Shown piece by piece: positions 5,729 through 17,579 of a DNA stretch of 32,000 bases (its first letter is position 1; each line of letters begins with the position of its first letter). The notes below the pieces were generated by a model that ran no database searches, was not told the DNA's origin, and worked only from the letters and a program-made list of their open reading frames with translations. Source of the stretch: Acholeplasma laidlawii PG-8A (GTDB lineage: Bacteria; Bacillota_I; Bacilli_A; Acholeplasmatales; Acholeplasmataceae); assembly GCF_000018785.1 (NCBI RefSeq), contig NC_010163.1, positions 210,001 to 242,000 of the forward strand. The letters are read 5' to 3'. The translations under genes were made by a program, and so were the position numbers.

Positions 5729-5785
5729 AATTCACCTCTAGTCCATTTATTATAACATGCAAAATCTACAAAACCTTAACTCTTG

Positions 5786-12425: not shown

Positions 12426-13655
12426 ATGTATATAAATTTGGGATATTTAAGAGGGCAGATAAGATTACGAAACCCAGAGATAACAAACAATAGTGACAAC
12501 ATAGGTTCTATGTTGAAATACCACCGGTTGAAACTTAATTTAACACTCGAAGATAGTTCCGATGGTATTTGTAGCGTAAGTTATTTATCTAAAATAGAAA
12601 ACAGTCTAATTAGACCAAGTGAAAAATACATACTACAGCTTGAAGAAAGATATAATGCTAAATTCTTTAACATAGGTAACCAGCACAATGAACTACTACA
12701 TCAACTTATAGAAAATTTGTTCTATGAACAAGAAGAAGTAATTGATGATGCTTTGTTTACCGAAGATACGTATCAATCTAGATTAAACAAAACTGGATAC
12801 CTAATTAGTCGAAACAAGTTTAACGAAGCCAAACTAAACCACCAAGAACTCAATCCATATATTAAAAATTTAAATGGTATTGAACTTAAATTTTATATAT
12901 TTCTAACATCTAAACTACTTAGCTTTGAAGGTAGACTAAAGGATGCTTTTTCTGTTTTAAATATAGAAACAGATCATTATCCACTATTACATCTAGATAT
13001 ACTCATAGCTTCTGAAAGAATACACTTAGCAACTAAAATGAATCATCATCCATACATTGTACTTACCTATGAAGCATTGATAGATCAATGTATAGAAAAT
13101 GAATTTTATCATAAAGTACACGAACTTAAATATCACTATCTAACCTACATGGTTCAATTTATTAATGAGCCAATGCTTAATGAACTCTTGGATAAATCTA
13201 AAAACTTAAAACCCGATCAAAGAGCTTTTGTAAAGGCTAAATATTTCTTCATGAATATGGACTATGAACTAGCTATTGAAACGCTTAATAGTGAACCTTT
13301 AAACAGTAAGGCGTCACTCGAATTAAAACTCCTTATTCTAAATAGGCTAAACCAATCTTCTATCATGAATGAATCACTTAAATCATTGTCTAATATTGAC
13401 AACAAGCAACTTAAATTAATACACGCCTACTTAGTACTTAAAAATACCAGAGCTACAAATATTGAGTCCTTAGTTCAATTTATTCTAACAGAGGTTTTAA
13501 AATCAAATGATCTACCAGATGACATCTTATATTTAAATTTTTGGTACGAAGAAGGGTTGCAATGTTTAAAGAAAGTAGGCTATTATAAAGACGCAACTAA
13601 GTTGGGTAGATTAATATTTAGAAAAATAAAAGATTTAACGACTATTTTTGATTAA
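12426..13655 (+). CDS. XRE-family HTH transcriptional regulator with long helical-repeat (TPR/RNPP-like) C-terminal domain
   Basis: The HTH_XRE pattern IGSMLKYHRLKLNLTLEDSSDGICSVSYLSKIENSLIRPS is followed by about 330 aa of helix-rich repeats. SD AAGGGAG lies 7 nt upstream of the ATG. Confidence 0.8.
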   Translation: MYINLGYLRGQIRLRNPEITNNSDNIGSMLKYHRLKLNLTLEDSSDGICSVSYLSKIENSLIRPSEKYILQLEERYNAKFFNIGNQHNELLHQLIENLFYEQEEVIDDALFTEDTYQSRLNKTGYLISRNKFNEAKLNHQELNPYIKNLNGIELKFYIFLTSKLLSFEGRLKDAFSVLNIETDHYPLLHLDILIASERIHLATKMNHHPYIVLTYEALIDQCIENEFYHKVHELKYHYLTYMVQFINEPMLNELLDKSKNLKPDQRAFVKAKYFFMNMDYELAIETLNSEPLNSKASLELKLLILNRLNQSSIMNESLKSLSNIDNKQLKLIHAYLVLKNTRATNIESLVQFILTEVLKSNDLPDDILYLNFWYEEGLQCLKKVGYYKDATKLGRLIFRKIKDLTTIFD

Positions 13656-13721
13656 ATAACTAAATAATGTGATACACTATAAATAGTTTAATAAACTAAA
13701 AAAGATGAGTGGGAGGTTTAC

Positions 13722-13769
13722 ATGGTTATAAAAAAATGTACACTATTCATTATAGGTAACAATAAATAA
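13722..13769 (+). CDS. unannotated small ORF, 15 aa (MVIKKCTLFIIGNNK): candidate signalling pro-peptide or regulatory leader peptide
   Basis: Consensus SD GGGAGG (13711-13716), a 5-nt spacer, then ATG. TAA stop at 13767-13769. It lies 66 nt after the regulator stop on the same strand, with no terminator in between. Confidence 0.4.
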   Translation: MVIKKCTLFIIGNNK

Positions 13770-13854
13770 TTTATTTGTAGGACTTATAATGAAGGCTTAT
13801 TTATTTATAAAATACCCTTCATTCAGATATAAAAGCTTTTTTATATGTATCTTT

Positions 13855-13878
13855 AAGAGGGGAAACCCTCTTTTTATT
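13855..13878 (+). terminator. intrinsic terminator / possible attenuator upstream of ABC operon
   Basis: Stem AAGAGGG / CCCTCTT closed by a GAAA tetraloop and followed by TTTATT. It sits 32 nt upstream of the ABC gene ATG. Confidence 0.65.
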
Positions 13879-13909
13879 ATCTAAAAACACGACGAACAAG
13901 GAGAACATC

Positions 13910-15739
13910 ATGAAATTTAAATCCCTTATGAAACTAGCCAAAGGACACTTGTGGGGCTATATTATCTTAATTATCTTAACGATATTCCACCGCTTCTCAT
14001 ACTCCTATGTGCCTTTATTCACTCAATATATTATTCGTACTTTAACGCTTCGTTTAAGTACTGACCCATTACCTCCTGATTTACAAACGGTCAATCTACC
14101 AGCATTTGTAGTAAACTTCTTTGAATCCGGTGAAACGATTTTAATGATCGTGTTTTATGTTGCGATTACATTAATATTTTATCAAGCATTTAGATACTTG
14201 ATGATGTATTTTGAATTAAGTTTACGTGGTCGTATTCAAGAAAGTATTGCAAAAAAATTACGTAATAGATTATATGATCACATTCAAAACTTAAGTTACA
14301 AATATCACAACAATGCAGATAGTGGTGACTTAATACAAAGAGTTACATCAGACGTTGAAACTACAACAGGTTTTGTAGTCTTACAGTTTATGCAACTTAT
14401 TGGACTATTTGCATCACTATTTAGTGGTGTATTCCAAATGTATCATATTAATACCACCATCATGTGGGTGTGTTTAGCAGTTATTCCCGTCTATGCGATC
14501 TCATCTATTTTCTACTTTACAAGAATTGAAAAGATATTTGAAAAAGTTGAACATGATGAATCAGAGATGATGACAGTCATTCAAGAAAATGTGAGTGCTT
14601 CAAAAGTTGTTAAAGCATTTGCTAATGAACCATTTGAATTAGAGAAAATGGAAAAGAAGAACAAGCAATACACCAACAGTAATATACGTGCTAACAAAGT
14701 AGTAGCAATATATTGGGGAAGTATGGACTTTATCTCAATGGCACAATATGCACTTGTTACTGTATTAGCCATCCACTTTGTAAGAACTGGTGAAATGGAT
14801 GGTGCAAGTTTTGCTGCATCCTTAATGCTAATTGGTTTATTAGTATGGCCAATTCGTGGGTTAGGTCGATTAATTAATGAATTTACTAAAGCGTTTGTTG
14901 CGATTGGTCGTATCAACCATATATTTGAAGAAAAAACTGAATATGAACAAGATGGTCATTTAGAACCAGAGATTCATGGTCATATTGTTTTCAACAAAGT
15001 AAGTTTTAAATTTGAAGATGATGCAAACTATTTATTAAAAGATATCTCATTTGAAATTAAACCAGGTGAAACAGTTGCAATTATTGGTAAAACTGGCAGT
15101 GGTAAAACCACAGTTATTAATCTATTAATGCGTATGTATGAATATGAAGGATCCATTACAATCGACGGTGTTGAGTTAAGAGAAATCAAAAAACAACACA
15201 TGAGAAAATCCATTGGAGCTGTCCTTCAAGATCCATTCCTTTATTCTAGAACGGTCTATGAAAATATATCGATTACAAATAAAACAGCAAGTAAAGATAA
15301 AATTATTACAGCAGCTCAAACTGCAGCACTTCAAAATGATATTCATACCTTTAAAAATGGTTATGAAACGATGGTTGGAGAAAAAGGTACTACGTTATCT
15401 GGTGGACAAAAACAAAGAGTTGCGATTGCGCGTGTACTAGTAAGTGATAAACCAATACTTATATTTGATGATGCACTATCTGCTGTTGATAATAAAACAG
15501 ATATGATGATTCGTGGTGCATTAAACCAAAAGGAACATCAATCCACAAACATTATTATTACACACCGTATTACAACAGCGAAAGAAGCTCACAAGATTAT
15601 TGTCATAAATAATGGACAAATTGAAGACATCGGTACACATAAAGAGCTCGCACATAAAGATGGTCTTTATAACAAATTATGGGGCATTCAAGGTAAACTT
15701 GAACAAGAATTCCTAGACTTAATTGAGGAGGGTGCTTAA
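13910..15739 (+). CDS. ABC transporter ATP-binding/permease protein (type I exporter half-transporter, degenerate-site subunit)
   Basis: Six-helix TMD plus an NBD. Walker A is GKTGSGKTT and the signature LSGGQ is canonical. Walker B is ILIFDD, with Asp (15470-15472) replacing the catalytic Glu. AAGGAG SD 6 nt upstream. Confidence 0.9.
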   Translation: MKFKSLMKLAKGHLWGYIILIILTIFHRFSYSYVPLFTQYIIRTLTLRLSTDPLPPDLQTVNLPAFVVNFFESGETILMIVFYVAITLIFYQAFRYLMMYFELSLRGRIQESIAKKLRNRLYDHIQNLSYKYHNNADSGDLIQRVTSDVETTTGFVVLQFMQLIGLFASLFSGVFQMYHINTTIMWVCLAVIPVYAISSIFYFTRIEKIFEKVEHDESEMMTVIQENVSASKVVKAFANEPFELEKMEKKNKQYTNSNIRANKVVAIYWGSMDFISMAQYALVTVLAIHFVRTGEMDGASFAASLMLIGLLVWPIRGLGRLINEFTKAFVAIGRINHIFEEKTEYEQDGHLEPEIHGHIVFNKVSFKFEDDANYLLKDISFEIKPGETVAIIGKTGSGKTTVINLLMRMYEYEGSITIDGVELREIKKQHMRKSIGAVLQDPFLYSRTVYENISITNKTASKDKIITAAQTAALQNDIHTFKNGYETMVGEKGTTLSGGQKQRVAIARVLVSDKPILIFDDALSAVDNKTDMMIRGALNQKEHQSTNIIITHRITTAKEAHKIIVINNGQIEDIGTHKELAHKDGLYNKLWGIQGKLEQEFLDLIEEGA

Positions 15740-15740
15740 G

Positions 15741-17579
15741 ATGCAACATCAAGAACAAGAAAACGAAATTAAAAAAGTATCACTTCCTGTTTGGGGTAGA
15801 TTATTTAAAATAATATTAAAAGATAAACGTAGTTTTATCATCATGATTTCTATTGGTGTATTTGTTGCACTTCTAGATGCACTCACTGTAGTCATTCAAC
15901 AATATGCACTAGATACATTTATTGAAAAAGGTGATTATACATTCTTTACTCAGTACACAATTCTAAACATCCTTGTTGCACTAGGGTTTGGTTTAGGGAT
16001 TTGGGGTTTTATTTACCAAAGTGGAAAAATTGAAGCCAATGTCAATTACCTATTAAGAAAAGAAGCGTTTAGAACACTTCAAAGATTGCCATTCTCATAC
16101 TATGATAAAACCCCACAGGGTTGGATCATGGCTCGTATGACAAGTGACTCAAAAAGGCTTGCTAACATCATTTCATGGGGTATCGTTGATGTCATTTGGT
16201 CACTGCTACTTATGATATTTACACTAACCATTCTTTATTTTTATTTTTGGAAATTAGCAATCATTGTGACACTTGCAATACCTATGATGTTTCTAGTTAC
16301 ATTGCTATTTAGAAAGCGTGTATTAAAAAGACACCGTCAAGCAAGACACTATAACTCTGAGATTACCGCAAAATATTCTGAAAGTTTTCATGGTGCTAAA
16401 ACATCTAAGTCCCTCGTTATTGAATCTGAAAACCTAAATGAATTTAAACAAACAACAAACAAGATGTATAAGGCAAGTGTTAAAGCGCAAAGCCTATCAG
16501 CAATGTATTCTGCTGTATTATTACTCGCTTGTTATATCTTTGTAGCGATTGTCATGTATACGGGTTCAAGCTTTACCATTGAAGGTGCAATCACCATCGG
16601 GGTAGTATACTTATTCATTAGATCAACAGTGAGTTTCTTTGATCCAATTATTAACTTATCTAACTTTATTTCCCAACTCCAACAAGCACAAGCAAGTGCA
16701 GAACGTATCTTAGAGCTTATTATGACAGAATCTCAAATTAAAGATAGTGATGAAGTCGTATCTAAATACGGGGACTGGTTTCATAAGAAAAAAGAAAATT
16801 GGGAACCACTTAATGGTGATATTGAATTCAAAGATGTTACATTCTCATACAATGAAAATGAAATCATCTTAGATAACTTTAATATAAACATAAAAGCAGG
16901 TATGAGTGTTGCATTAGTGGGACATACAGGTAGTGGTAAGACAACCATTGTAAACTTAATCTCAAGATTTTACGAACCAACTCAAGGTCAAATCTTATTA
17001 GATGGCGTAGACTATAAAGATAGAAGTATCTCATGGCTACATGAGAAATTAGGCTATGTATTACAATCACCACATCTATTTTCAACAACCATTCTAGAAA
17101 ATATCCGTTATGGACGTTTAGATGCAACAGATGAAGAAGTCATTGAAGCCTCAAAAGCAATCGGATTACATCCGTTTGTAGAAAAATTAGAAAACGGCTA
17201 CCAAACACATGTAGGTGAAGGTGGTGGCTTGCTTTCTATGGGACAAAAACAGCTCATCTCGTTTGCTAGAGCAATCCTTGCAGAACCAAGTATCTTAATT
17301 TTGGATGAGGCAACTTCATCGATTGATAGTGAAGCAGAATCATTAATTCAAGATGCTACTAAGAAATTATTAAAAGGGCGTACGAGTTTAATCGTTGCTC
17401 ATAGATTATCAACGATTGTAGACTCTGATTTAATTGTCATGTTAGATCAAGGTAAGATTACTGAACAAGGTACTCACCATGAACTGTTATTAAAACGAGG
17501 GGCTTACTACGATCTTTATAGAAATCAATTTTTAGAAGAAAAATCAAAAGTTTATGAAGCTGAAATGAATAAACTATAA
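15741..17579 (+). CDS. ABC transporter ATP-binding/permease protein (type I exporter half-transporter, consensus-site subunit)
   Basis: TMD plus NBD. Walker A is GHTGSGKTT and Walker B ILILDE is canonical. The signature is deviant: LSMGQ (17232-17246). ATG 15741 has a GGAGGG SD 8 nt upstream. The ORF-track TTG 15723 is unlikely to be the start. Confidence 0.9.
   Translation: MQHQEQENEIKKVSLPVWGRLFKIILKDKRSFIIMISIGVFVALLDALTVVIQQYALDTFIEKGDYTFFTQYTILNILVALGFGLGIWGFIYQSGKIEANVNYLLRKEAFRTLQRLPFSYYDKTPQGWIMARMTSDSKRLANIISWGIVDVIWSLLLMIFTLTILYFYFWKLAIIVTLAIPMMFLVTLLFRKRVLKRHRQARHYNSEITAKYSESFHGAKTSKSLVIESENLNEFKQTTNKMYKASVKAQSLSAMYSAVLLLACYIFVAIVMYTGSSFTIEGAITIGVVYLFIRSTVSFFDPIINLSNFISQLQQAQASAERILELIMTESQIKDSDEVVSKYGDWFHKKKENWEPLNGDIEFKDVTFSYNENEIILDNFNINIKAGMSVALVGHTGSGKTTIVNLISRFYEPTQGQILLDGVDYKDRSISWLHEKLGYVLQSPHLFSTTILENIRYGRLDATDEEVIEASKAIGLHPFVEKLENGYQTHVGEGGGLLSMGQKQLISFARAILAEPSILILDEATSSIDSEAESLIQDATKKLLKGRTSLIVAHRLSTIVDSDLIVMLDQGKITEQGTHHELLLKRGAYYDLYRNQFLEEKSKVYEAEMNKL

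Follow-up and report, generated by a model that had tools for sequence, protein, structure and literature searches.

Attenuation of multidrug-type ATP-binding cassette (ABC) exporters through leader open reading frames (ORFs) is well documented in Bacillus and its relatives, and Mollicutes are regarded as poor in regulatory mechanisms. Two of the closest described systems come from Bacillus subtilis. In the bmrB leader of bmrBCD, efficient translation of the leader ORF results in termination, whereas slowed translation gives an antiterminator and read-through (Reilman et al. 2014, PMC4191407). In the vmlR leader, which carries the upstream ORF uORF(MIN), read-through is triggered by an initiation-arrested ribosome, and lmo0919-type attenuators are related to it (Takada et al. 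2022, PMC9226507). Here, we analyse a 32,000-nucleotide stretch of Acholeplasma laidlawii PG-8A (contig NC_010163.1, positions 210,001 to 242,000; hereafter the window), in which a 15-codon ORF and a series of complementary segments lie between a regulator gene and two ABC genes, abc1 and abc2. Judging from comparative sequence analysis, we put the probability that positions 13668–13909 comprise the promoter and the approximately 225-nt 5' leader of abc1-abc2, and that they act as a ribosome-dependent transcription attenuator, at roughly 60%. In the literature, we found no description of leader-ORF attenuation in Mollicutes or Acholeplasma.

An initial annotation of the window had proposed an attenuator of the bmrBCD kind. 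Its leader ORF, alternative hairpins and terminator are supported by the comparison of lineages, but homology to bmrB is not. As in bmrB, the genes of a heterodimeric ABC exporter, which here is of the same structural type, lie behind a leader ORF of the translated type (here predicted) and an intrinsic terminator, and the logic that we infer, in which impaired translation would lead to read-through, is also the same. However, BmrB has 53 codons and its ORF contains the terminator, the antiterminator and the anti-antiterminator, whereas the 15 codons found here cover only segment A of the helix chain described below and end before segment B, leaving the terminator outside. There is no sequence similarity between the two, and the Acholeplasma leader has an additional segment containing the Shine–Dalgarno (SD) sequence as well as an additional layer of helices. 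Hence, the leader is, on our best reading, analogous rather than homologous to both bmrB and vmlR, and we classify it as a putative non-homologous addition to the known ribosome-dependent transcription attenuators of drug-type ABC systems.

A small ORF within a conserved chain of helices

We compared 18 distinct leader sequences from 12 lineages, which have 58–98% identity to the window. They share one layout in a fixed order: promoter, the nearly invariant ATGAAnGGGAGG, ATG, ORF, hairpin segments and a terminator with its T-run, then a spacer of approximately 30–45 nt, an SD sequence and the ABC start. The leader, its elements and this layout are not the product of chance, given that shuffled controls are exceeded and that the arrangement recurs in 12 diverged lineages. 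The 213-nt region folds better than expected (z = -2.99; 1/200 shuffles folds as well). The window's leader is 97.7% identical to that of A. laidlawii, compared with 87–94% for the flanking genes and 74–85% for the third codon positions of those genes.

The promoter is an extended -10 element, TGTG-A-TACACT (13668–13678, + strand), which sits directly after the regulator stop codon in all leaders and is conserved as TRTG-N-TAnAAT in 18/18 of them. It matches the consensus for Mollicutes promoters, which consist of a TRTG element and TAWAAT, with the transcription start site (TSS) usually 6 nt downstream, and Fisunov et al. mapped 607 TSSs in A. laidlawii PG-8A (PMC5138195). The published TSS 223686, tagged ACL_0232, was anchored at window position 13685 (+ strand), 6 nt past TACACT, as the start of the leader and the ABC operon. 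With this anchor the other 11 published TSSs (215742–236645) fall 3–8 nt past TATAAT-like boxes on the correct strands, and the assignment is thus secure to within approximately 1–2 nt. The published map has no TSS between 13685 and that of the downstream gene for an Ig-like surface protein (227591, window ~17590), and ABC transcription therefore comes through the leader. The initial annotation had named a TSS downstream of 13872 as a refuting condition; none that could drive the ABC genes appears in the published A. laidlawii map. The window is colinear with that map over positions 5741–26644. On the - strand, the TSS at ~7240 has no annotated ORF of at least 40 aa behind it and may belong to a small RNA or a small protein gene.

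The small ORF (MVIKKCTLFIIGNNK; 13722–13769, + strand) runs for 15 codons from the ATG at 13722 to the TAA at 13769, behind the SD GGAGG at 13712–13716. Its length varies from 14 to 18 codons across lineages, GGAGG is invariant and ATGAA is nearly invariant. The ATG follows the SD at a variable distance of 5–10 nt, the AUG and helix A are separated by exactly 24 nt in 10/12 lineages, and the stop codon is always within the A–B loop. Between the ATG and the G codon of the LFIIG motif, this frame is uninterrupted in 12/12 lineages, compared with 0/12 and 3/12 for the other two frames, and the N-terminal codons have an A-N-N periodicity; both observations speak for ribosomes reading the small ORF. 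We predict its translation, and a small ORF with a usable SD and start is maintained by selection. The peptides have only (L/H/P)-F-I-(I/M/G)-(G/D) in common, with N- and C-terminal residues that are free to vary. Mean entropies at the three codon positions are 0.18/0.54/0.61 for the conserved LFIIG codons and 0.92/1.27/1.50 for the N-terminal codons. In the LFIIG codons, which coincide with helix A, each of the three positions is fixed, and the amino-acid changes that do occur (I to M, I to V and IIG to IGG) are accompanied by a changed partner base in segment B. Given the fixed wobble positions and the compensating changes, the constraint on LFIIG is one of RNA pairing, not of peptide sequence. 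Two further reading frames, an ORF at 13789–13884 (31 aa) and a mini-ORF starting at 13705, were rejected as spurious because neither length, frame nor SD is conserved.

Six segments on the + strand make up the helix chain. Segment S (AGATGAGTGGGAGG, 13703–13716), whose motif occurs only once in the window, includes the SD GGAGG and pairs either with A' (CTATTCAT, 13743–13750) or with C. Segment A (CTATTCATTATAGG, 13743–13756) lies in the small ORF at codons L8–G12, and segment B (CTTATAATGAAGG, 13783–13795) pairs with A or C, each pairing excluding the other. Segment C (CCCTTCATT, 13815–13823) can pair with B as an anti-antiterminator, with S, or with D as an antiterminator, the apex of which is formed by an AU-rich hairpin, H (13825–13852), with a U-rich stretch after it. 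Segment D (AAGAGGGG, 13855–13862) serves both the terminator, as its 5' arm, and the antiterminator, as its 3' arm, and segment E, CCCTCTT at 13866–13872 with the T-run (13866–13878 in all), completes an intrinsic terminator with D. Because neighbouring helices share nucleotides, only two folds are available, namely S:A + B:C + D:E or A:B + C:D.

The pairings read from the window in the initial annotation are all present. The 8-bp hairpin after the small ORF is formed by AATGAAGG (13788–13795) and CCTTCATT (13816–13823), and the TTATAGG/CTTATAA pairing belongs to a longer, 11-bp helix between TTCATTATAGG (13746–13756) and CTTATAATGAA (13783–13793). The alternative partners CCCTTC (13815–13820) and GAGGGG (13857–13862) are complementary and constitute C:D. 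The terminator, AAGAGGG (13855–13861) with CCCTCTT (13866–13872), has a 7-bp GC-rich stem, a GAAA loop and a T-run that ends approximately 32 nt before the ABC ATG at 13910. It lies 86 nt past the stop codon of the small ORF, was recovered by a terminator scan (7 terminator-like sites per 8.5 kb versus 2.8 expected) and is present in all lineages, with compensatory changes.

Mean duplex energies over the 12 lineages are -10.4 kcal/mol for S:A, -13.5 for A:B, -10.6 for B:C, -10.0 for C:D, -12.5 for D:E and -10.4 for S:C, compared with -4.0 to -6.7 kcal/mol for shuffled partners; the remaining segment combinations are at the level of the shuffles. Each lineage is predicted to form five local hairpins, whose energies are comparable between lineages and in the window are -9.6, -13.9, -8.5, -11.9 (C-H-D) and -11.0 (terminator) kcal/mol. 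At the position of H a hairpin is predicted in 12/12 lineages, despite the replaced sequence. For A:B, 10 pairs are formed in 100% of 180 cells, with compensatory changes in 3 pairs and a covariation score reached by 0/500 shuffles. In D:E, A-U is exchanged for C-G in 6 sequences, the covariation score is likewise reached by 0/500 shuffles, and S:A is 95% paired with weak covariation. In a register-free partner-permutation test, in which partners were swapped among lineages (20,000 permutations), the own partners beat the swapped ones for S:A (36 permutations as good), A:B (112), B:C (8) and D:E (0), and no own-partner advantage was seen for S:C (2,111) or C:D (2,137). B:C is preserved by two-sided changes, namely AAUGAAAGAA:UUCUUUCAUU in lineages L088 and L165, GAGGG:CCCUC in L002 and AGAAGGC:GCCUUCU in L009.

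Proposed mechanism and the points against it

In the attenuator that we propose, the first fold (S:A + B:C + D:E) would give the terminator, and the second (A:B with C:D capped by H) would permit read-through into the ABC genes. Under normal translation, a ribosome that has reached A, or the stop codon 13 nt further on, by the time B and C emerge would leave B to pair with C, so that D:E forms and transcription terminates. Without a ribosome, S would pair with A (or C), B:C would form and termination would again follow. The terminated product would be a leader RNA of approximately 190 nt that ends at the T-run, at ~13873–13878. A ribosome held at the SD or start codon, or on the first ~3 codons, would instead mask S and leave A free to pair with B; C would then stay single-stranded and capture D before E is made, and RNA polymerase would read through. 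For the window, the argument for this choice rests on the order of synthesis: B:C would form approximately 35 nt before D exists when A is masked, and A:B before C exists when A is free. The toeprint of a ribosome on an AUG reaches approximately +16 (PMC9226507), and the fixed 24-nt spacing from AUG to A fits the model because such a ribosome would leave A just clear.

Masking by the ribosome was modelled on transcripts ending before E. The mean C:D occupancy was 0.94 with a ribosome on the AUG, 0.38 with none and 0.42–0.48 with a ribosome on A or at the stop codon. Occupancy was highest with the ribosome on the AUG in 9/12 lineages, and the window and L002 had high values in every condition. 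The comparison shows the elements and their conservation, the covariation of A:B and D:E, the partner matching of S:A and B:C, the TSS position and the maintenance of the ORF; the effect of the ribosome, its stall position and the inducing signal are inferred. We have less confidence in read-through upon stalling at or near the start codon than in the attenuator as such. The most likely natural trigger would be an inhibitor of translation by which ribosomes are arrested during initiation or early elongation. Sensing of amino-acid starvation is unlikely, given that the early codons contain no conserved amino acid and that a stall at the Ile codons would favour termination. In all lineages a U-rich stretch follows H (13837–13854 in the window; UCUUUAA, AAUUUUUG and similar), at which RNA polymerase, by analogy with the vmlR pause hairpin, might pause so that transcription and translation stay in step.

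Several points weigh against attenuation. In folding under a ribosome mask, put forward as a check in the initial annotation, the full leader at equilibrium yields the terminator under every mask, in calculations in which the terminator register assigned to several sequences differed from the minimum free energy (MFE) register. Like other attenuators, the switch must hence work kinetically. When the sequence of the window itself is used, C:D comes out of the truncated-transcript model in all conditions, so that the ribosome logic for the window rests on synthesis order and on the other lineages. By fixed-register counting, covariation in B:C is not significant, and this helix reaches significance only in the register-free partner-swap test. 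No equivalog in NCBIfam was reached for the ABC proteins, and the RNPP-like fold of the upstream regulator gives the small ORF a second possible role.

The weakest link of the chain is C:D. In the window it amounts to just 6 bp, one of them a G-U pair. Across the leaders it is conserved and paired in 94% of cells, at -6.6 to -12 kcal/mol, but it is without covariation or partner specificity. Its complementarity could thus be a by-product of the pairing of C with B, of C with S and of D with E. Once capped by H, C:D is as stable as the terminator. The variable pair of the terminator lies outside the overlap with C:D, and the overlapped pairs are nearly invariant, a pattern that would be expected of a double constraint on D but is not proof of one.

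Among described leaders, that of vmlR shares with the proposed attenuator the succession of anti-antiterminator, antiterminator and terminator, a hairpin at the apex of the antiterminator and an initiation-arrested ribosome, which occupies the very position predicted here for read-through. The vmlR uORF differs in having 3 codons, in lying inside the anti-antiterminator and in having an ABCF ribosome-protection factor as target, whereas the Acholeplasma ORF has 15 codons, its ribosome would act through two further helices (S:A and A:B) and the target is a membrane exporter. As in Escherichia coli trpL, consecutive and mutually exclusive helices would be read by the position of a ribosome on a leader ORF of approximately 14 codons. 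However, trpL senses Trp codons, whereas no amino acid or codon is conserved here outside helix A, and the parity is inverted relative to trpL because there are six segments here and four in trpL.

Alternative explanations of the leader

The small ORF could be the gene of a pheromone propeptide that is sensed by the upstream regulator, in the layout of ComR/ComS or Rgg/SHP, and the peptide might be exported by the ABC pair; the promoter and terminator would then simply bound the small ORF. We regard this as unlikely, although it and attenuation are not mutually exclusive. The regulator gene (12426–13655, + strand), which lies outside the leader, encodes a 409-aa protein with an HTH_3 domain and helical repeats. 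Pfam matches it only to HTH_3 and no NCBIfam family was found for it. Its predicted structure (pLDDT 88.9) best matches, in the PDB, NprR (E 1e-4, TM 0.57/0.65), followed by PlcR, PrgX, ComR, Rgg2 and AimR, and the model thus points to a helix-turn-helix domain with TPR-like repeats in an RNPP pheromone-receptor-like fold. As in the RNPP cassettes (ComR/ComS, Rgg/SHP and NprR/NprX), a very short ORF with its own promoter and terminator follows directly 3' of the receptor-like gene. The peptide is short, with a basic N-terminus and a hydrophobic core, and the regulator evolves fast, with 88% identity to its orthologue in strain 8195 compared with 96–98% for neighbouring proteins. No binding site is listed for this regulator in the transcription factor table of PMC5138195.

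Against a propeptide gene, more than 60 lineages devoid of the small ORF, L007 and L008 among them, keep a regulator orthologue in the same place, and the regulator thus persists without it in most of the family, unlike in the RNPP cassettes. The sole conserved residues are those of helix A, which are fixed at wobble positions and change together with segment B, so that conservation, again unlike in the cassettes, is at the level of RNA and coincides with a helix. The C-terminal residues, which in SHP/XIP-type peptides are usually the active part, are not conserved. A propeptide gene would also leave unexplained why S:A, A:B and B:C exclude each other in a chain that reaches into the terminator arm, and no separate TSS is reported for the ABC genes. 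A dual small ORF, with an attenuator run by RNA and ribosome and a peptide that serves as ligand precursor of the RNPP-like regulator after export by the ABC pair, is a very doubtful combination; if true, translation stress and peptide signalling would be coupled in a single locus of a wall-less bacterium.

It is rather improbable that the leader is a switch or attenuator run not by the ribosome but by another trans-acting factor, be it a protein, an RNA or a small molecule, with the small ORF incidental. The S:A, A:B and B:C helices are real whether or not the ORF is translated, which is consistent with such a switch. However, it does not account for the invariant SD and the fixed spacing from AUG to A, nor for a frame that stays open in 12/12 lineages despite diverged N-terminal codons, with the other two frames closed and a three-base periodicity in these codons. 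In addition, no conserved unpaired core resembling a ligand pocket is apparent, and a scan of Rfam gave no match at gathering scores and only chance-level, uninformative matches at E up to 10.

Sensing of the nascent peptide, as in erm leaders, would have a drug-bound ribosome stalled on L-F-I-I-G (residues 8–12) induce the ABC genes. The initial annotation had pointed out a resemblance between LFII and the IFVI of ErmCL, and there are indeed parallels: a short leader peptide, a hydrophobic, beta-branched motif at a fixed distance from the start (positions 6–9 in ErmCL, 8–12 here) and alternative hairpins that overlap the ORF. The motif is 8 residues from the start in 10/12 lineages, and this distance resembles nascent-chain lengths at macrolide arrest sites. 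The resemblance is nevertheless best explained by the RNA constraint on helix A, in which each of the three codon positions of the motif is kept, as RNA, with tolerance for amino-acid changes that preserve pairing. An erm stall frees a downstream SD and involves no terminator, whereas an intrinsic terminator is present here and the abc1 SD (13899–13904) stays unpaired in the MFE fold as well as in the centroid fold and is not sequestered in any predicted fold; translational attenuation of the erm kind therefore does not apply. A ribosome on LFIIG would mask A and free B for C, with D:E left intact, so that a stall on the motif is predicted to favour termination, which disfavours this variant too. 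We hence consider erm-type sensing very improbable.

That D:E is a mere terminator of the plsX-rnc-dnaD-nth-regulator operon, with chance complementarities and a promoter TTAAGA-16-TATTAT for the ABC genes, is hardly credible. In its favour, there is no terminator between the regulator stop codon and the leader, so that D:E must also end upstream read-through, and the promoter-like match noted in the initial annotation does exist and overlaps the terminator. Against it, this match is rejected as a promoter because such matches occur at chance frequency (40 per 8.5 kb versus 47 expected) and no TSS is reported there. Moreover, the conserved promoter and its mapped TSS are found upstream of the small ORF, just after the regulator gene, and the complementarities are conserved, covarying, partner-matched and stronger than shuffled controls. 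The interval without a terminator between the regulator stop codon and the leader promoter is 13653–13685, and read-through from the upstream operon (TSS ~9385) would enter the leader and meet the same terminator.

The locus across Acholeplasmataceae

The putatively regulated genes occupy 13899–17579 on the + strand, with the SD AAGGAG at 13899–13904, abc1 at 13910–15739 and abc2 at 15723–17579. Both products are half-transporters with ABC_membrane and ABC_tran domains (Pfam). The best bacterial PDB matches include YheI/BmrC for abc1 and TM_0288 and YheH/BmrD for abc2, and the two genes code for the half-transporters of a heterodimeric ABC exporter, with proteins of the BmrC/BmrD (YheI/YheH) type. 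As listed, abc2 has a TTG start and a 17-nt overlap with the end of abc1 (15723–15739), which suggests translational coupling of the two halves. The literature on ACL_0231 to ACL_0233 yielded no report.

The gene order dnaD-nth-regulator-abc1-abc2-Ig-like surface protein-flavodoxin-dnaE is kept across Acholeplasmataceae. In six lineages (L043, L047, L050, L054, L057 and L065) the ABC pair is absent, and the regulator is followed by the genes for the Ig-like surface protein and flavodoxin and by dnaE. The small ORF occurs only in the clade around A. laidlawii, A. granularum, A. oculi and A. hippikon, in an intergenic region of approximately 255–315 nt. More distant Acholeplasmataceae have no such leader; there, a terminator of the regulator gene, a TTGACT-17-TATACT promoter and an untranslated region of approximately 25 nt are found. 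In these leaderless genomes the ABC-pair promoter carries, across its -10 box and TSS, a perfect palindrome, CCTATATA-CT-TATATAGG (L018:7317–7353 and 37 other loci, for example in L015, L024, L027 and L059). The palindrome is a probable operator and might be the target of the neighbouring regulator.

Within or beside the ORF-bearing clade, as placed by rough neighbour-joining trees, A. equifetale (L007:4230–4379) has a 150-nt leader with a terminator and without the FIIG small ORF, and L008 (4519–4584) has only 66 nt, with no leader and a promoter of the same type, TATGATAAAAT, directly before the ABC gene. From their sequences, both look like loss or replacement of the attenuator. An uncultured Acholeplasma (L010:7213–7408) has a non-homologous leader behind the same promoter type and before an orthologous ABC pair. 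This leader has an S-like AATGAAAGCGGAGG, an ORF of 21–22 codons and a T-run, and the middle of the ORF (ACACAAC) is complementary to the 5' arm of an 11-bp terminator, which places the 5' arm of an antiterminator inside the ORF. It appears to be an independent instance of the same strategy.

The analysis also draws attention to the RNPP-like regulator itself, a syntenic core gene (dnaD-nth-regulator) of the whole Acholeplasmataceae family that evolves much faster than its neighbours. A. laidlawii has both a TSS map (PMC5138195) and genetic tools (PMC10805103). For the leader, the six-segment chain predicts termination both with normal translation and without a ribosome, and read-through only with a ribosome held at the start. 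If this is true, the leader would be a natural sensor for initiation-arresting antibiotics.

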